Source: Neodothiora populina (taxonomy: Eukaryota). From it: a stretch of DNA of 64,000 bases. The stretch is from positions 1,674,001 through 1,738,000 of the forward strand of contig NW_027191413.1 in NCBI RefSeq assembly GCF_041146345.1, read 5' to 3'. The translations under genes were made by a program, and so were the position numbers. A model generated the notes under the pieces. It did no database searches. It was not told the origin of the DNA and was given only the letters and a program-made list of their open reading frames with translations. This document shows, piece after piece, positions 29,907-41,504 of this stretch. Positions within the stretch are counted from its first letter, which is position 1; each line of letters starts with the position of its first letter.

Positions 29907-31136
29907 ATGGTTGCAGAGACAAAACTCTACGACTCGCTGTCGATCAGCCCGACGGCATCAGAAGCCGAGATCAAAAAGGCCTACCGCAAAGCAGCTCTCA
30001 AATACCACCCGGACAAGAACCGGGACAACCCCAATGCATCCGAGAAATTCAAGGAAGTCTCTCAGGCCTATGAGATTCTTTCTGATCCGGAAAAGCGCAA
30101 GATCTACGACCAGTATGGTCTTGAATTCCTGCTGAGGGGAGGAGCCCCTGCACCTGAGGATGCAGGCGGTCCTGGTGGAGCAGGTGGGTTCCCTGGTGGT
30201 ATGCCCGGAGGCTTTGGAGGCATGCCTGGCGGATTCGGCGGTATGCCAGGAGGAGGCGGCAAGACGTTCCGCTTCACGACAAGCGGAGGTGGAATGCCTG
30301 GCGGCGGCAGCGGCTTCAGCTTCAGCAACCCCGAAAGCATCTTCTCCGAGTTCCTACGGGGTGGCGCAGGTGGAGCTGGCGGCATGGGCGGCGGTGCCAC
30401 CATGGGCGGTGACGACGATGACTTCTTCTCAGCATTCGGCGGCGGGGGCAACTTTGGATCGTCACCATTCGGCGGACGCCCGGGCACTGGAGGTCGAACA
30501 CGCACAGCGAACGGCGGTATGAGGAGGCAACAGACACCAGAAGTCTCTGTTGTCGAGAAGCCACTGCCTGTGACGCTAGAGGATCTATACAACGGCGTGA
30601 CGAAGAGGATGAAGATCAAGCGCAAGACGTTCGACGAAGCCACCGGCAAACAGTCGCTGCAAGACCGCATCCTCGAGGTGCCCATCAAGAAGGGCTTGAA
30701 AGCCGGCAGCAAGATCAAGTTCAGCGGCGTAGGAGACCAGATCGAAGGCGGCTCACAGGACCTGCATTTCATCGTAGAAGAGGTAAGCGGCACAATCCCA
30801 AAATTGACCCACCCGAAAATTAGACACTAACTCATCCAACAGAAACCACACCCTCTCTTCAAGCGCGTGGGCGACGACATCCACCACAACGTAGACATCG
30901 ACCTCAAAGAAGCGCTCACGGGCTGGAAACGAACCGTCAAGACCATCGACGGCAAGCAGATCAGCGTCGGCGCATCCGGTCCCGTCGGCCCAACCTACGT
31001 CGACAAATTCCCCGGCCTGGGCATGCCAAAGCCCAAGAAACCAGAGGAGCGAGGAGACTTTGTCGTCGGCGTGAATATCAAATTCCCCACTTCCCTGACC
31101 GCGGATCAGAAAACGAAGCTCAAGGAGATTTTATGA
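29907..31136 (+). CDS. SIS1: Class II Hsp40/DnaJ co-chaperone (Sis1/Psi1); 2 exons
   Basis: [10 protein letters not shown]-domain with HPDKN, G/F- and G/M-rich linker, no Zn finger, C-terminal substrate-binding domain; intron 30783-30842. Confidence 0.93.
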
Positions 31137-31535
31137 GCTGAGTAGAAAAAGATAAAAGCCGAAGAGGTTTGGCACACAAACACACACTCGCGCAAAGAAC
31201 GAAAGAGTCATGATACCATGGAAGCGGCATTTTTTTTCTACTGAACGATATGTTTTTCTTTTCTCTTTTTCTTTTCCTGTTTCCAGCGAGCATTATAACT
31301 TTTGGATATGCGCAAGCAACAAAAACTCATTTACAAGATTTCTATCTGGTAATCCAATAAACAGAGAATAATTCCATTTCCTATCTTGAATGAACTTAAC
31401 GCCCAACGTAAGGAATCATTATGATTGGTCTGCGTAATCGAGACCCAAGCTAACTGTGCAATTGACTGCGTTCATTAATAGACTTATACAATGAATGCAT
31501 CTCCGAGTACTCCTTTCTGTACAATATGAAATCGT

Positions 31536-33195
31536 CTACGGCAAGGGCTGATTGCCATCTACACCACTTGCCGCCGACGACTGGGTCCGCCAACCCACGA
31601 AGCTCTCACTCAAAACCTGCCCCGTCCCCGTCTCCTCGACCTTAAAGACCTCAATGATCCCGGACCGCGCAGCCCGACGTATCCGCCAGACGCCCTCGCT
31701 GCCACCGACAGTCTTCTTGAGAAATTCGAGAAAGGCGCCGGTGAAATTAATGCACAGGCTGCCGTCCCATATGAAGCGTCCGTTGCGCAGGATATGCCCG
31801 GGCATGCGCTGCGTGTCCAGCTCTTCGAGGCTTTCTAATATGCCGTCTGGAGAGCGGTAGCCGATGATGATTTTTGGGACGCTGGTGGTATGGTTCGTAA
31901 GCTTTATGGCGCGAGGGATTTCCATGACATGTATTGGGGAGAAGAAAGGACGGGCTTGCTTGCTTACTTACCCGAGGAGGAACGACTGCGCCCAGAACTT
32001 GAGCAGTTTCTTCTCGTGGATTCGTATGTTCTTGTCGTTTTGCGGTCTTCGCGCTGTTTTGAGCTCGACCCATCGTGCGGGCTCGTTGGGGTCTTCGGGC
32101 TTGTAGCCCAGGACTGCCATTTGTTTCAGTACTGAATCAGCTATCTGGTCGTTTGGGACGTACCTCCGTCGACTTCTCCCCCGATGATCATGGACGCTCC
32201 CGCAATGCCAGTCTTGCATAAGCTGCAGTACTGCGCCGAGTTGTCGACAATGTCGTCTTCGCGCTGCTCGATCTCTTCTCGAGATGTGCTCGGCCAGGGA
32301 CGCGGGAGCAGTGATAGAGCCTCGAATTTGTAGCCCCAGTACATGGCGAGGTTTTGAGGAGGCCCGCCTGGACGCGAAAAGCGGCGCTGTTGGTCTTCTT
32401 TCTGCGCTACTTTGTACTGGTGATGCTCTTCGATGAATCTATATCACAAATCAGTCGTTGGGTCGGAGCGAACAGATGACTAGTTTGAAAAAGAAGATGT
32501 CGGACAAAGGAAAGCTCACATGGTACCCTGTATCCAGGTTTAGATTAGCTAAACTGCCAATTGTTCAAATATCAAGGACTAGCGATGGCAGTTGCGCACT
32601 TGGAAATATGTAGCGTTCATCTCGAAGCCGTCTTCTGAGTCGAACGGAGCAGTCATGATCTAGAAAGGGTAACATGTCAATATCAAGCAATGAGTACTAA
32701 GAACAGATAGCGTGTACCTTGGTCATCATGCCTCGCCAAGTGATGACATCGGCATCGATACGGTTGCCATCTCTCTTCTCTGCTGCTATTATCGTTTCCA
32801 GCAAGGAGTCGAGATGTTCATCTGCCGAATCGTCTCTTAGGCGAAACTTGTCATATCCTTTCGATCTGCATAAACTTAGCGAGACTGAACCTCATGCGGT
32901 TGTGAATGTACAGACAGATCAACTGGAAACCGCGGATCCTGTCCTCCTGGAGTGTCGAACATGGGAGGATAGTAGTAGCGAAGTGATATATCCGATAATG
33001 GATGCAATGTATGATCATCATCGTATGAAAAGTATGCGATTTCCTTCAATGTCGTCAGGTTCGATACTCATCCACAAGGAGGCGGCACCCGAAGATGGAC
33101 ATGATTTCGATTTGAGGAAATACCAGCGGTTTCTTGATAGAAGCATTCTTGACGCCTGCGAAGCGACCCAAGTCGATGGCGAAGTTGGCTTGCAT
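31536..33195 (-). CDS. RAI1: RAI1/DXO decapping nuclease; 8 exons
   Basis: Exons 33195-33124, 33043-32916, 32865-32718, 32659-32600, 32527-32520, 32438-32164, 32113-31972 and 31881-31536. Motifs EIAYFSYD, WRGMMTK, YWGYKFE, GGEVDG, WVELKT and KFWAQSFLLGVPKIIIGYR. Confidence 0.93.
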
Positions 33196-33822
33196 GTTAT
33201 AGCCTTATAGCAGGTATTCTGTTGTTGTGAGACACTCCCCGTGAGACGAAATCTCGATCTTCAATTGGTTGTTCACGCCCTTGGCTCTACAAACGATGAA
33301 TTGATGCTATGTGATTCAATATGCTCTGGCAAGAAAGGGTAACATTTACTATTCTACAGGTCAAGGAGTCGCGAAGGCTCGCGTACGCGACTCTCATGTA
33401 TGTGCTTGTACTTTGTTTCCTACCTTACCTTACTACAAGCGATCAGAGTACGAAGATACGATGACTTAATTCTGGTCAGCCGCAAATCACTCAACCATGA
33501 TTTCTGTCTTATCTGCTTCTCATGTTCAGTCACGTCTGAATCTTGCTTCCCGTATTCGAGAGACCTCTGGCTCAATGTGTCTGGAAGCTAGATCTGCCAG
33601 TTGTCAGAGCATGAAGCACAGGATGTAATGATGGACTCGGTCCTAGTCAGCAGTATCTCACTCAAAACCACTTGGTTCGCACCCTGCTTCGGTTAGCTTT
33701 CAACGACTTCTGGCTCATTCCTCTCAAAAACGGACTCAGTACCTCGCTTAAGTCCGACGAACTCGCTTAATATCTTGGCCGGAACCTTGCGAGTTTGCTA
33801 ATGTTTGCTCAGCCGATCCATG

Positions 33823-33829
33823 TATATAT
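33823..33829 (+). promoter_or_regulatory. Putative TATA box of the U2 snRNA gene
   Basis: TATATAT about 40-47 nt upstream of the predicted U2 5' end, followed by a pyrimidine-rich tract. Confidence 0.45.
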
Positions 33830-33869: not shown

Positions 33870-34114
33870 ATGTCTCGTAAGATCTTCTGCCTTACCTCTT
33901 ACTGGTTGAGCATTTTCTGACTTCGATCACAGTTTGCCTTTTGGCTTAGATCAAGTGTAGTATCTGTTCTTTTCAGTTTAATCTCTGAAAGGCTTCCACG
34001 GAAGCATTTATTGATTATCCTAATTTTTGGAAATGGGTGATGGGATGCTCTGGGCTTGCCCATCTCTTGTCCCCACAGTGTCGCCAGTATTGCACTACTT
34101 CTGGCTGATGCGAC
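33870..34114 (+). ncRNA. U2: U2 spliceosomal snRNA (intron-containing; ends approximate)
   Basis: GCCTTTTGGCTTAGATCAAGTGTAGTATCTGTTCTTTTCAG core; branch-point recognition GTAGTA 33957-33962; stem IIa TTTCAG/CTGAAA 33971-33990; stem IIb GCTTCC/GGAAGC; IIc complement GATTA 34013-34017; Sm site AATTTTTG 34022-34029; SL III TGGGC-TT-GCCCA; SL IV GCCAG..ATTGCACTAC..CTGGC. Confidence 0.95.
33877..33932 (+). other. Spliceosomal intron within the U2 snRNA gene (56 nt)
   Basis: Donor GTAAGA, branch CTGAC 33917-33921, acceptor CAG. Removal joins TCTC to TTTGCC, restoring the conserved U2 5' sequence UCUCUUUGCCUUUUGGC. Confidence 0.85.
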
Positions 34115-34483
34115 TTTTCATTGGTTGCTTGGTCTCTTTTGACCGGGTTCTGAAGAAGAGTGTGTCTTGTGTTGGTCATTTCTGTAGCTCTTGTTGTGGT
34201 GTCCGTTGCACATATAGATCTCATGCTAAGCGCCCATCTTTTATTGTCAGGCTGTAGCTAAAGCAGAAGAGCAATGCTCTCATGCTCTCGGGAGAACACG
34301 AGATAGACCAGGGACTCCATCTTGAGCGATACAGATAGACATGACCGTGAAGCCCAATCGCCAGCACACCTGATAGAGTCCATGCTGGCGTGCCTAGTCA
34401 ATTGTAGATCCACGAAATGATAACTATTCTTTCTCATATCAGATCTCACAGTGCTGCTCTACAACAACCCATGACCGAAGCAA

Positions 34484-35829
34484 ATGCCTCGATCCACACG
34501 ACAACATGACCCGTTCAACGATGCCCCTCGCCGTCCTACCTCACGAGCGAGAGTGGCAGTAGCAGCATCAACATCAGCAGGCAACCACCTCCAAGAATCC
34601 CACGGCAGCACATCACACACTTCACGGTCTGCAAATCCTGTCAGCGGAATAAGCAACCGCAATCTGTTCGGGTACGCACTCCGCCGCGCCGCCGCCCGCC
34701 AGACTCCTACTGCAGGTGCAAGTGCAGGGCCAGGGACAGGGACAAGGGCCGGAGCAGCAGCAACGACTTCTGCATCTGCGGCCAACACGGACATTCTCGA
34801 AGACTCAGAGGCAGACGACAACGCTGGGGACCATCACTATCCTACGCCCCACGTTCGGCAACGCAATCAGTTGCGGAGTCAGCGGACCATTACGACTGCC
34901 GCTGCTGCCGCTGCTACACGAGCAGCTAAATCGTCAGTGACAGCGTCGAGATCTAATGCCAACAACAGCACAAAAAGCACGACTTCGAGACGAGCGAGAT
35001 CAGCCAAAAGCCTCGCTGTAGAACCCAGCCAAGACGACAACAGAGACGAGCTTATTCACAAAAGCGAAGATGCTGAAGACGACAACGACAGTGGCGACGA
35101 CGAAGAAGAAGAAGAAGAGGAAGACGACAACGATCTAGTCATACGCGACAAGAACGGGAATTACCTGCACTCGCAACCGCTGCCGGGCGAGCAATCGGAC
35201 ACGACAATCTATCAAGACGAACGTAAGTCCACCACTCTGATCAATCTCATGTAAACCCCAACCATCATTATCACCATCATCGTCTTCGCTTCTCTACAAC
35301 TCTATAAGTCGCGATGCACCAAAGAGCGAAGAAAACCTTATGCCCAAGCCTCACTTAACCGACCGTTAACAAAGAACAGAACGAGCGAATAGCGCGCGCC
35401 TCTCGACCGCTGCGCGAGCGTTTTGGCTCTCGGGAGGCGGATGCAGTACTAGCGCCTCTTCTACTTCTCCTCCTCCTCTTGCTTATTCGCACAACACAAC
35501 CACCACCACCACCACTTCTCAAGGGCGCAATAGTCGAGTGCGCAGGCGGGAGGCGGTACCGAGGAGTCCTGGCGGTGTGGAGAAAGGTGCGTTTACCCAC
35601 TCTCTCAACCCGCAATATACAGAGCGTAGACTATGTGATTGTAGAAAAGCAGAAAAGATAGGTCACACAGCTAACACCCGGCCCGAACAAACAAGACACG
35701 AAACTCGCGGAAGAAATCATGGCCGGTCTGCGAGAGGCGGTGGATCGTAAACTGGTCGAGGAGAGGTGGTTGTTTGAACCTACTGATTATCTCGAGGAGA
35801 CGAGGTTGGGGACTCATGGTGCTTATTGA
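34484..35829 (+). CDS. Hypothetical, largely disordered protein; 3 exons; C-terminus reminiscent of APC16/Apc9
   Basis: Introns 35223-35379 and 35587-35695 give NRNLFGYALRR..LVIRDKNG..RLSTAARAFW..LAEEIMAGLREAVDRKLVEERWLFEP..*. Confidence 0.7.
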
Positions 35830-36334: not shown

Positions 36335-39300
36335 CTAGTCGCTGAGTTCGAATGCATCGTCTGCAGTGCCCGTACCGGCTTTTATAACACTCGCTCCTGC
36401 GCCATTGGGTGTGCCCCCATTGAATCCCGCGCTGTACCGACCGCCTGCGAATCCATCATCTTCTTCGTCTTCGTCTTCCTCCTCGTCGTAGTCTGATGCT
36501 TCTTCATCTAGTTCGTCGCCTTCTTCTTCTGCTTCTTCATCTTTTTCAATTTCTTCGAGTTCTTCCTCGGCTTCTTCGTCTTCCTCGTCGTCAGAATACG
36601 AAGTTCCTTCGCCGTACTCGTTGTCTACCCTGGAAACATCGACCCTATCCCATCCATGTTCGTCGTCGTCGGCGTCGTCGTCATATTCGTCGTCATCGTA
36701 GTCTACCAGCTCTTGGTCTGCGTCTTCCTCGGTGCCATTGATGCTCTGCGGTATACTCTGCTGTTGCTGTTGCTGCTGAAGAAACTCCGTTACAGAAAGG
36801 TCCGCACCGTTAGACGGCAAGAAAGTACCATTGGTGTTGTCGTAATGCAAATCATCCACATGAGCAATATGATCTTCGACTTGAGCAGCAAAGTGGCTCA
36901 AAGCATTGTATTGTGCTGCCGCTGGTGGCGGTGGGGAGACACGTGGAGTTTGGACAACTTTCTGAGCGTAGATCCTTCCGACAGATCCCATAGACGGAGA
37001 GTGGCGAGATGCAGGCTGTTGCGCAGGAGTCCGTGATCGCGATTCCATCAAGTCTCTTGCTTTTGCGACTGCCTGTGTGTAGTTGTCACGCGGCAAGAAC
37101 CTGCTCTCTCGTAGTCGATAAGCGGGCACGTCTTGGGTCAAGATCGAGCTGGCGATGCTGCTGCCGAATCCGGCGCTGCTCGTTGACGCCCGCAGCCGTG
37201 CCATTTCGCGCGCGCGTTGCATCGAGGGGGTCTCCAGGGTGCGCGATAATTCTTGCCTTGACTGAGTTTCGATGTTTTGTGTCTCTGAGCGATACCATGC
37301 TGCTGATTCTGACAGAGCTTGTCGTGCAGCCCGGGCACGGGCGAAGAGAGCCTCGTCCTCCTCTTCGGTCTTCGACGGCACTCTAGATCTTGACTGTGGA
37401 CGCGAAGAAGCTGGAGACTGAGCACTAGGCTCTACTGGTGAGATCACACCCTCAGTTCCGGCTGTATTTAATAGATCGGTGTTCGCGGGTAATCGTGTTT
37501 TCCTTGCAATTGGAGACTCCACAGCGGGTTCTTCGCTGTCTTCTCTTGCACGTTTTCTGGTTGATGCAGCAGCCCCATTGGGATCGATGCCCAAAGCCCG
37601 AAGGCGGAAATAGTTGGACCTCGTCGTTGTGGCTGGAGTGCCTGCCAGGGACACCTGGGGTGTTTGTCGGCGTGCCGGAGTCGCGACGTTTGACATTGCC
37701 GTAGCTGGTTTGTTGATCTTGCTGTGCAGATCGAGACCGTTGGTAGAATTGAAAATCCCCGGAGCTGCGGATTGATCTTGTCCCGTGGAGGCATTATACA
37801 AAGGTCGGTCTTTGACGGTATCATTTGCCTTGCGAGGGGTATCATCATGAGGTCTCTTGCCATGCACCGATTTGAGGAAATTGTCAACCGCATTGTTCTC
37901 TGCAGCAATCTTCTTCTCCATCTCTCTTGCGTGTTGTCGCTTTGCAGCCCTCTGCCTCTTTTCTCTACCCTGTCTGGCAAGCCTTCGCCGCCAGCAAATG
38001 TCTCTCCACCTCTTTCCATATCTGAAAGACAATTTCTCCGCTCGAAAATTATCTGCGAGTTGTTGCAGGCTTTCCGTGTACAGCTGATCATAGACCTCTA
38101 ATATGGTCTGGCGAGCATGAAACTCAACATACTGTCGGATGAAGCCAGTATCCACATCCAACGTGACCTCTCTAGCAATATTCTGTAGAATCTGTTTCTT
38201 GCTTAACTTGGGTTCTGGAGGAGGAACTGGCTTGCTGGCCAAAGGTTCGGTCCGCGCCACCGCGTTGGACGGCGCAGCATCAGGCTTGGGCTTGGGTAAA
38301 GCAGCAAACGGTGCGCCAGAGACGCCAGAATTCAAGTTACCGAACGGATTCGTCGTGCTCTTCGCTGGAGGGTGAGGTGGAACTGCATCGCCTGGCACAA
38401 CTTCTTCTGCTGCGGCGCTGAACGACCGGGACAGCGGACTAGGTTTCTTCGGCTGATTTGGCTGCGGGAATAAACTAGGCGGGGGCTTTGATGGCTGTGA
38501 TTTTGGTGCATCAGAAGTGCCGCCCAGATTCTGGAACAGGGATGGTGGTGGAGGCGTTGCAGTCGATGGGATTGCTTCCGAAGAGCCTGTCTCAGGGGCG
38601 ATCGATTGATTCGTATTGTTGAATTTGCTGCCGTAATCACCGTTGATCGAAGAGTTGTTTCCGCCGAATACTGGATTGACATCATCCGGCACAGGAGGCG
38701 TCGTACTCGATGGCGTAGGTGCTTTATCGAACACGAATGGAGAAGTTTTGGGAGTTGATTCCCTCGCGAACAGGGAAGGGGGTGATGTTGCATCTGTTGC
38801 CGCTAGTGTAGGAGTAAAGGACTGGGAGGGCTTTGGCGGTCCTGCAAATGAGAATGGCGATGTACTCTTTTCGGCAGGAGCGGTATCATTCTTGTCAGGT
38901 TCTGAGGATTTCATGCCGAAAGAGGCACTAGCGCCAAAGCTCGCCGATGATCCGTTGGCAAGTGAGCCTTGCTGTGTGAAGCCAAAGGGTGAAGCCGGAG
39001 GCTTCGTGAAGTCGGACGATTTCCCAGCTTCGGGAGCGGTCGTCTTCTCTGCGTTTCCCTGTGCGAACACAGATGACTGTTGCTGAGTGGCAAACGGTGT
39101 AAAAGGCTTCGCAAATGGCGATATCTTCGGCGCTGAATCTGATGCGGCCGCTGAAAAGGGGGCAGAGCTGCCAGCTGAGGGCTGTGTAGGCGCAAAAGGA
39201 TTTGCAGCTGGCTTTGATGCAGATTCTATCGTTGCTTTTTGAGCAGAGACTTGGCCGAACGAGAACGGACTTGCAGCCGGAGCAGGATTGTTTGCAGCAC

Positions 39301-41504
39301 CAAAGCCTTGTGAGATTGGCGCAGCTTCGGCTGGTTTCGAGATCTGGGAGGGAAACGACCATGGATTGCTGGCGCTAGTGTCAGTCTTAGCCGGTGCAGT
39401 TGTGGTGGCGAATGGCGATGAAGTGGACATTCCCTTGTTATCAATAGTCACGAAGGGTGATGAGCCGGTTAGATTGTTGTTGTTATTGCTTGCAAAAGGT
39501 GATGTAAACGTGGACGGCTTCGAGGCTCGAGTGTCGGGCACGAACAAAGAGTCTTCATCCTCCATTTCATCACCCTCAGCTATCTCTTCGACAAGACCTT
39601 GGTTCTGGGCTTCGACAACAGTCATACCAGCTATCACAGCCGAGAGTGTCCTACCGGCGCGCTTGATCTCCACTATCCTTGCAGATAAAGTCTGGCGAGG
39701 CATGCCCTGAGTAGCTTCGGGGAAAGTCTTACCCTTCACCGAGTTCAGATCCAGGAACGGTTCGTCGACAGTGTCGAGCTCTTTGAACACAAACCCAAAT
39801 TGCTGGCAGAAATTCTCGGTTTGGTCCCAGTCATCAAAGGCAAGTAAATCAGTCAAGAGAGTCAGTGTGAAATCCGAGACTTCGTGCCTGACACCCTGAG
39901 GCCTGGAGGCGCGCCATATAGCATTCAGGGCAGTTCGTCGCATAAGATTGAAGTAAATTTCCGAGACGCACGCCATGAGATAGGAAACAGTGTTGGAGCG
40001 TACTAAGGCGAAATAGCGGTTCCAGTCCTCCTGTGCAACGGGATGCACAGCTCGCGGTTTCAGGGGGCCCTGAGGGTCGATGATGTTGCAGGCGGCATTG
40101 TAAAGGTCCAGAGCTTTTCGAATGCGAAAGTCTGATCGAAGGTCGGCGGCCCAGCCATTGACTTTCTCTTCAACGTCAGGGGTAGGGTTTTGAGCTTGAA
40201 AGATGATGCTATAAGCTCTGAATTCGGCTTCGTTGGGACAGACGAGGCGGCCTTTGGTGTCGTCGTAATACTGTCCGAGGGACAACAAGGTACGGTCGAG
40301 CTGCTCTCGTTCCTGCCAACCATCGTACTGATCATATGGCTTCTCGGAACGAGCCAGCTGGTGCAATGAAAGAATATGGAAGCGGGCTATGCGTTCATAG
40401 CAGTCGATTGCAATCTCCAAGTCCGCGGGCTTGGTGAGCTGCTGAATGGAAAAATCGTTGCGGATGGCGCGAGTGCGATCCCAGACAAAATGGTGAACTG
40501 ATCCCAAGGACTCGGCATTCGTGATGATATCGTTAAAGAGATAGTCGCAAGTGGCCTGAAAGGATGATTTCAGCGGATATGACTAGAGGCGACCAAGTCT
40601 TGTAGCAATCTACCTTGAGTACAGCAGGAGGACGCAGATCGGAAGGCAACTGTTCGTCTAATCCAGCTGCTGCTCTCCTGAATTTTTTCACCATGCGAGC
40701 CTCAGCTGGGGCGCTACTGTCGTTTCCTGGCTCCTAGAAGGTCAAACAAATCAGCAAAGCGCTCTTGTAATGTCAAGCATGTGTTCCAAGCTCTTTACTG
40801 CCCATCCCCCTCCATCATATTCCATCATCTGAGAGGGGCAAATATGGACTGACCTGTTCGGCAGCCCAGACGTCATTCTGCACAACACGTTCGACGCGCT
40901 CGAACTCAGCACACATGTCGGGACACGTTCCAATCGGGGTGATGGCTTCGGCCAGTGTACGCGGTTTGTCGGGATCGGCGAGGAAGCCATTTGCTATAGC
41001 CTCAGCGCGCTCACGCTCGCGCATCTTTTTGAGTTGCTGATAGCGATCCTGGAACGAGGCATCTTTCCCATCGTGTGTTCCTGCTCCTCCTCCCAACTTC
41101 TCTTTCCTTGCTGTCAAAGTCGCAGCCGAGGCCATGGCGCTGTTCGACGCACCGCGTCCTCCTCGAGACGCAGAGATCCCACCACCACCACGCGCACTCG
41201 ATGCTCCTGCTGCGGCTCCTGCTGCTGCTCCTGCTCCTGCTCCTCCTCGTACACTTCCATTCTGGAATGTTTTTCCATTCCCGCGTCCACGACCGCGCGC
41301 ACTGGCCTGATTGAACCCAGGACGAGGCATCCTCGTGGCACCATTATTTCCCGTCGCTGCAGGCGCCGTCGTGGTCGCTATTGCGGTCATGGCCATTGAT
41401 GGAGCGGCTCCGAAGATGGAAAGACTGTTGTTTGTATTACCGTAGTTGCCGCGACCGCGACTGGTATTACTGCTGCCTCTACCACCGCCTTTCAATAACG
41501 ACAT
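36335..41504 (-). CDS. SAC3: SAC3/GANP-family TREX-2 mRNA export factor; 3 exons
   Basis: LAEAITPIGTCPDMCAEFERVER, MVKKFRRAAAG..LPSDLRPP, FVWDRTRAIRNDFSIQ, YERIARFHI and NEAEFRAY; introns 40734-40853 and 40556-40613. Confidence 0.93.

Follow-up and report, generated by a model that had tools for sequence, protein, structure and literature searches.

A fungal U2 snRNA gene with a putative spliceosomal intron after its seventh nucleotide

The 64-kb window, i.e., the whole stretch of DNA that was analyzed here, contains a U2 snRNA gene on the forward strand, the conserved 5′ end of which is split by 56 nt with the layout of a canonical spliceosomal intron. Judged from the sequence, positions 33877–33932 are very probably a real spliceosomal intron that would be excised from the transcript. 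With good probability, the locus is a working U2 gene whose RNA would be spliced only 7 nt from the cap and would thereby gain the conserved 5′ end. In this model, RNA polymerase II would transcribe the gene from a TATA promoter with a start at about A33870, and the primary transcript would consist of a 7-nt exon 1, a 56-nt GT-AG intron and a 187-nt exon 2. The spliceosome would excise the intron and join ...UCUC to UUUGCC..., giving a U2 RNA of about 194 nt with the same 5′ end as in intronless relatives. Since such an intron needs the spliceosome, the machine probably splices one of its own parts, and the supply of new U2 would hang on spliceosomes which already contain U2. The intron itself would be one of a group of lineage-inherited but mobile U2 introns at RNA positions 5–11, which appear in many environmental fungi.

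Identity and proposed exon-intron structure of the U2 gene

The U2 model of Rfam (RF00004) matches positions 33926–34119 of the forward strand with 137.1 bits (gathering score 46, E-value 7.5e-28), and this is the single Rfam match within the whole window. The alignment comprises model positions 1–192 of 192. The branch-point recognition sequence GTAGTA (33957–33962) and the Sm-type run AATTTTTGG (34022–34030) align to invariant model columns; both of them, as well as the later stem-loops, are aligned with high posterior probability, and the last stem-loop carries ATTGCAC. The locus is a U2 snRNA gene. Its 5′ end is aligned poorly: ATCACAG is fitted to the start of the model by means of a deletion, and in this unspliced sequence the outermost two pairs of stem-loop I are flagged by Rfam as non-standard. 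The motifs and coordinates on which the initial annotation had based its intron model (TCTC, GTAAGA, CTGAC-N8-CAG, TTTGCC and the U2 elements) are all present in the sequence.

Exon 1 (33870–33876, forward strand) is 7 nt long and reads ATGTCTC, of which the last four bases, TCTC (33873–33876), are supported by similarity. We infer that transcription starts at A33870; the pyrimidine tract ahead of the 5′ splice site contains no other A. The putative intron (33877–33932, forward strand), as read from the sequence, is a 56-nt GT-AG intron of the U2-type spliceosomal class. It begins with the 5′ splice site GTAAGA (33877–33882), carries the branch motif CTGAC (33917–33921) with the branch A at 33920, 12 nt before the 3′ splice site, and ends with CAG (33930–33932), which lies 8 nt past CTGAC and contains the first AG after the branch. 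Exon 2 (33933–34119, forward strand) comprises 187 nt from TTTGCC onward and holds the remainder of stem-loop I, GTAGTA, stems IIa and IIb, the Sm site and stem-loops III and IV; its 3′ end is the end of the Rfam model and not a mapped RNA end. Taking this end at 34119, the predicted spliced U2 has 194 nt; a mature RNA of about 190 nt had been proposed initially.

The intron site lies between nucleotides 7 and 8 of the RNA, in the strand shared by stem-loop I and helix II and about 20 nt ahead of the branch-point recognition sequence. Helix II is formed by pairing between the 3′ part of U6 and the dozen nucleotides at the 5′ end of U2, and therefore the intron of the window would interrupt the helix II strand.

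For an estimate of chance occurrence, the intron configuration was defined as an AG at the boundary that is preceded by CTRAY at a distance of up to 45 nt and by TCTCGT at a distance of 35–150 nt. It was found at 38 of the 127,600 window positions on both strands, corresponding to 3.0e-4 per position, and four of these 38 positions are located at the U2 locus, 33933 being among them. It is unlikely that the configuration falls by chance exactly where the similarity to the U2 5′ end stops.

The neighborhood provides an intron for comparison. A DnaJ-family gene, identified by Pfam (29907–31137, forward strand), contains an intron of 60 nt (30783–30842) with the signals GTAAGC...CTAAC...CAG. This intron is verified by the Pfam domain DnaJ_C, whose profile positions 2–72 are matched before and 73–152 after it. 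The U2 intron with its 56 nt, GTAAGA, CTGAC and CAG matches this one verified host intron in length and signals. The U2 gene has as neighbors a RAI1-family nuclease gene (about 31536–32700, reverse strand), in which several candidate introns of about 55–90 nt were seen by eye, and a SAC3/GANP-family gene (36335–40507, reverse strand). For the SAC3-family protein the best atlas match is 0.87, with Ascomycota as the commonest group, which serves as a lead only. The two ORFs flanking the U2 gene (32719–33210 and 34484–35254) gave no Pfam match. The host of the U2 gene is a fungus and probably a filamentous ascomycete.

It is extremely improbable that the 56 nt arose from a recent insertion of a different nature, or from an error of the assembly, and only resemble an intron. 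The segment has exact GT...AG ends and a branch motif 12 nt from its 3′ end, its removal restores the conserved string precisely and its length matches the verified host intron. Moreover, the same layout is found on independent contigs from many samples, as described below.

Promoter geometry and the predicted spliced 5′ end

The joining of 33876 to 33933 rebuilds the conserved U2 5′ string without a base lost or gained. A contiguous UCUCUUUG string exists in the spliced RNA only, whereas the unspliced RNA reads ...ACAGUUUG. The initial annotation had proposed that the spliced and the unspliced sequence be compared by their match to a U2 model. For this, an nhmmer profile was built from 21 distinct intronless 5′ halves of metagenome relatives. 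The spliced form of the window gene scores 96.5 bits over profile positions 4–107, while the unspliced forms reach 91.8–92.0 bits over positions 8–107 and exon 2 alone 90.6 bits. The spliced form thus fits better at the 5′ end, where its match begins at profile position 4 instead of 8. The gain in score is small (+4.5 bits), because TCTC alone is added by splicing. Exon 1 reads ATGTCTC in the window and AGCTCTC in the relatives, with ATG in place of AGC as the first three bases; the first bases vary in other intronless loci as well, with ...TCTCTTTGCC being kept.

Stem-loop I is complete in the spliced form alone, where it is composed of the pairs U-A, C-G and U-A as well as G-C, C-G and C-G. 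The two outer pairs are U-A and C-G after splicing, compared to the mismatches A/A and G/G in the unspliced sequence. Folding of the first 27 nt gives a minimum free energy of -7.7 kcal/mol for the spliced and of -4.4 kcal/mol for the unspliced form.

The promoter contains a TATA box, TATATAT (33823–33829, forward strand), which is located 47 nt ahead of A33870. On reading the sequence between 33760 and 33930, no second TATA-like run was seen. In the intronless metagenome genes, the distance from the TATA box to the A of AGCTCTC is 37–59 nt with a median of 46 nt (n = 28). In intron-bearing genes, the distance from the TATA box to exon 1 is 38–47 nt (n = 9), including the window with 47 nt; the other eight range from 38 to 45 nt. 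These spacings exclude 18 of 55 loci without a match to the TATA pattern (12 intron-bearing and 6 intronless); in several of these, an A-rich run occupies a comparable position. Exon 1, rather than exon 2, is the reference point for the position of the U2 TATA box.

This spacing bears on the possibility that splicing does not take place at all and that the RNA starts inside the supposed intron, e.g., at A33926, with a divergent 5′ end AUCACAGUUUGCC... and with TCTC and GTAAGA being fortuitous. Such a start would agree with the Rfam alignment, which covers the full model from 33926 with 137.1 bits, and with the A-U start that is seen in many U2 RNAs. In budding yeast, changes in helix II of U2/U6 are tolerated, and hence divergence of the U2 5′ end need not be lethal. 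However, the only TATA-like run is 103 nt away from 33926, far beyond the 37–59 nt of the 28 intronless relatives. Such a start would also lose two pairs of stem I and would leave a full intron configuration, expected at 3.0e-4 per position, as a coincidence. Together with the loci of the relatives described in the next section, this makes the absence of splicing very unlikely.

U2 introns in metagenome relatives

A survey of relatives for the presence of the intron had been suggested initially. Metagenome contigs were scanned with a 34-base string from exon 2, which starts at GCC and has a sequence typical for the U2 of fungi. At least 116 loci with at least 118 matches were obtained; the scan is blind to introns falling inside the 34-base anchor, and the class counts given here are examples, not frequencies. 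Of the 118 matches listed, 66 are of the type of the window, with TTTT after the anchor. The other 52 have different 5′ ends, mostly ...CTTACCACTCTG, which presumably represents the basidiomycete type. In addition, GGTCCGTGCGC is conserved roughly 10–20 nt before the TATA box in U2 genes of the ...CTTACCACTCTG type (e.g., L002, L009, L012, L020, and L022) and may be a lineage-specific snRNA promoter element.

A contiguous 5′ end, AGCTCTCTTT followed by GCC (also written ...CTCTCTTT followed by GCC, or ...CTCTCTTTGCC), is present with at most one mismatch in 34 of the matches listed. In 20 of the matches listed, the same 5′ string is split by a GT...AG intron of 51–66 nt with a CTAAC, CTGAC or CTAAT motif. 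Among these listed matches, the intron follows position 11 in nine cases, position 6 in five, position 7 in three, and positions 5, 9, and 10 in one case each. The loci L004, L028, and L050 among them are split exactly at the site of the window (CTCTC/TTTGCC). By eye, the window intron has nothing in common with the introns of these three loci beyond the splice signals. The survey thus revealed 5′ U2 introns in at least 20 fungal loci, with at least three at the site of the window. The structure first proposed for the window gene, consisting of a 7-nt exon 1, a 56-nt GT-AG intron and an exon 2 from 33933, agrees with these relatives, with the TATA spacing and with stem-loop I.

Two further matches of the window type are too short for a full assignment: L019 ends with ...CAG/TTTGCC, which is consistent with site 7, and L116 with ...TCTCTTT/GCC, which looks intronless. 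Ten window-type matches were left unclassified by the script. Six of them are variant intronless genes by eye (L007, L060, L033, L111, L091, and L103), and three belong to the other 5′ type (L001, L008, and L072). L059, also inspected by eye, ends with ...TTAAG/GCC, and exon 1 is absent from the available 153 nt. A word search found 24 sequencing runs, each with at most 0.17 of the sampled words, which represent the conserved part of U2 and come from relatives.

Rfam was applied to 20 of the loci (11 with a 5′ intron, 6 intronless and 3 with an internal intron only), and all of them were recognized as U2 with 105.6–158 bits. Loci with a 5′ intron scored 105.6–151.3 bits (119.5–151.3 bits without L110) vs. 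142.9–158 bits for the intronless ones, and the 137.1 bits of the window lie in the range of the former. Annotation by covariance models misplaces the 5′ end of such U2 genes, in this case to 33926, and lowers their scores.

Six genes with an intron at site 11, three of which are the tandem genes L062–L064 on one contig, were compared pairwise. Each of the 15 pairs shows an identity of 100% for exon 1, compared to 85–94% for exon 2 and 58–77% for the intron. At the level of sequence comparison, this conservation of exons above introns is the pattern of true introns and not of a conserved leader or a structural extension. Both the recurrence of the layout of exon 1, GT...AG and exon 2 in at least 20 other U2 loci and the full conservation of exon 1 next to introns of 58–77% identity speak against an unspliced RNA that starts within the supposed intron.

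The tandem genes L062, L063, and L064 are about 1–1.7 kb apart, and all carry the site-11 intron. Within this trio exon 1 is identical, exon 2 is 85–94% and the introns are 58–74% identical.

A quick maximum-likelihood tree was calculated from 50 U2 bodies with 155 columns, taken from the loci listed and the window; rows with internal introns, aberrant bodies, the other 5′ type or fewer than 150 nt after the anchor were omitted. The window falls into a group of 13 rows (SH-aLRT 93), which contains all five site-7 rows (the window, L004, L019, L028, and L050) as well as one site-6, one site-10 and six intronless rows. Of the nine site-11 genes, L110 was omitted and the other eight group in a single clade (SH-aLRT 94). 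The site labels require 11 changes on the tree, compared to 19–21 in the ten shuffles printed. U2 intron sites thus appear to be largely inherited within lineages and to have changed many times. The branch that leads to the U2 of the window is long (0.47). The loci listed include no close relative of this U2, with a best identity of about 74–79% (79% over the variable 150 nt); its placement in the tree is therefore unsure. A common descent of the site-7 introns is suggested by their grouping in this weakly resolved part of the tree.

The long branch would also fit a gene in which the intron is structurally real, while the copy is silent, decaying or minor and an intronless U2 elsewhere supplies the spliceosome. 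Several U2 genes per genome are common in fungi, e.g., two loci in Aspergillus fumigatus (PMC2377427, Table 3). However, every functional element of the window gene is intact, its 137.1 bits lie within the 105.6–151.3 bits of the 5′-intron loci, and a well-placed TATA box is retained. Furthermore, the tandem copies L062–L064 are all intron-bearing, have exons conserved above introns and look like working copies there. A silent or minor copy is therefore considered unlikely, and a working gene with a spliced transcript is the preferred reading.

Introns were also found deeper in the U2 gene. Seven of the loci listed have GT...AG introns at three sites in or adjoining the stem IIa region, the first site being used in L030 and L068, the second in L084, L092, and L110 and the third in L087 and L102. 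In L110 the internal intron follows TTTTCAG, and a second intron is present at site 11.

The 5′ splice sites of the relatives show a further peculiarity. Purines are usual at intron position +3, whereas a pyrimidine occupies this position in 6 of the 8 listed metagenome introns at sites 6 and 7, in the form of GTCAGT (L018, L028, L050, and L083), GTCCGT (L115) or GTTCGT (L074). Weak 5′ splice sites near the cap might entail a regulated or unusual recognition.

In addition, six loci have an identical stretch of 30 nt right after the anchor (TTTTCAGTTTAATCTCTGAAACGTTCCTAC), and their intron state differs. L004 has its intron at site 7, as does L019, which is cut, L027 at site 5 and L059 has a 3′ splice site at position 10, while L033 and L111 have none. 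This suggests a fast turnover or sliding of introns among close relatives.

Finally, in L032 and L056 (reverse-strand copies) a second U2 copy adjoins a normal U2 gene in divergent orientation. In this second copy, the promoter-side context and the initial ~60 nt of U2 are retained, up to and including TTTTCAGTT, and are followed by an unrelated GC-rich hairpin (...GGAGGACCTTCGGCCCTCC...) in place of the U2 body. The copy may represent either a truncated U2 or the gene of a chimeric small RNA.

Significance and comparison with known introns in small RNA genes

Spliceosomal introns within spliceosomal RNA genes are rare curiosities. Taken together, the loci described above make U2 positions 5–11 apparently a widespread and little-described intron hot spot in many environmental fungi. 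The wider proposal, that U2 nucleotides 5–11 are a recurrent, undescribed hot spot across filamentous ascomycetes with six adjacent sites and at least three further internal ones, is tentative, with somewhat less than an even chance of being correct. If the hot spot holds true, many fungi would splice their own U2 from a precursor with a capped first exon of 5–11 nt, which would be among the shortest first exons known, and the supply of U2 would depend positively on the splicing capacity. It would also offer a natural system for the gain, sliding and loss of introns in a 190-nt RNA under strong constraint. If splicing is confirmed, a capped first exon of 5–11 nt would set a useful lower bound for the recognition of cap-proximal 5′ splice sites.

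Introns of the mRNA type in snRNA genes are already known and are attributed to reverse splicing close to the catalytic center, and the 5′-terminal site in the U2 gene of the window was not found described. The search in the full-text literature, with most subscription journals outside of it, yielded the U2 intron of Rhodotorula as the only one, and no description of a U2 intron in an ascomycete or of a U2 intron at the 5′-terminal site. The initial annotation had regarded the insertion site as possibly undescribed. The site is not peculiar to this genome; it is one of six adjacent sites and belongs to a hot spot that a lineage has in common, as opposed to a singular case. For Aspergillus fumigatus, excerpts of a report from 2008 give only a partial alignment of U2 and describe loci of 276–277 nt, whose predicted size disagrees with northern blots (PMC2377427). 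This size mismatch is suggestive.

The intronless U2 genes of the metagenome relatives (e.g., L016, L021, L024, L048, L055, and L078) share with the window gene the layout of the promoter and, from TTTGCC onward, the RNA. They differ by a contiguous 5′ end, AGCTCTCTTTGCC, and by scores of 142.9–158 bits, whereas the 5′ end of the window gene is split and begins with ATG instead of AGC.

Spliceosomal introns have been described in the U2 (Takahashi, 1993) as well as the U5 and U1 genes (Takahashi, 1996) of Rhodotorula hasegawae, as mentioned in excerpts of PMC5855946. The U2 genes of Rhodotorula hasegawae and of the window have in common a spliceosomal GT-AG intron in a fungal U2 gene of polymerase II, so that U2 itself would be spliced. 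Rhodotorula hasegawae is a basidiomycete yeast, whereas neighboring genes and U2 type of the window point to an ascomycete, which again is a lead only. The window intron would thus extend the case of U2 past one basidiomycete yeast. Also, the U2 intron of Rhodotorula reportedly adjoins the branch-point recognition region, whereas that of the window follows nucleotide 7 in the stem-loop I/helix II strand and leaves a first exon of 7 nt.

Introns in U6 genes are known from Schizosaccharomyces pombe (Tani and Ohshima, 1989) and were surveyed by Canzler et al. (2016). According to the same excerpts, fungal U6 genes contain many unrelated canonical introns at clade-specific positions, with little conserved beyond the splice signals, and these introns concentrate near the catalytic core, i.e., the ACAGA box and the internal stem-loop (PMC5855946). 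The determinants of intron insertion into snRNA genes are described there as unclear, and U1 introns also do not fit the rule of proximity to the catalytic core (PMC5855946). Fungal U6 and the U2 loci described here share the presence of canonical spliceosomal introns in a spliceosomal RNA gene. In contrast to U2, U6 is transcribed by polymerase III and lacks an Sm site, and its introns lie near the catalytic core, whereas those of the U2 loci are concentrated at the very 5′ end.

The pattern of the U2 introns is most closely paralleled by the introns of the fungal U3 snoRNA, which like U2 is capped and independently transcribed from a TATA promoter. In excerpts of PMC5832005 (2017), 133 of 138 fungal U3 introns are located in the 5′ half of the first stem-loop, at few clade-typical positions, and the choice between one gain with sliding and repeated gains is left unresolved. 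The same excerpts name only U3 and U6 as small structured RNAs that are often interrupted, U2 being unlisted. The 5′ clustering of the U2 introns has no obvious fit to the rule of proximity to the catalytic center and parallels the unexplained clustering in U3. U3, however, is nucleolar and acts outside the spliceosome, hence its splicing involves no self-dependence of the kind that is proposed here for U2.
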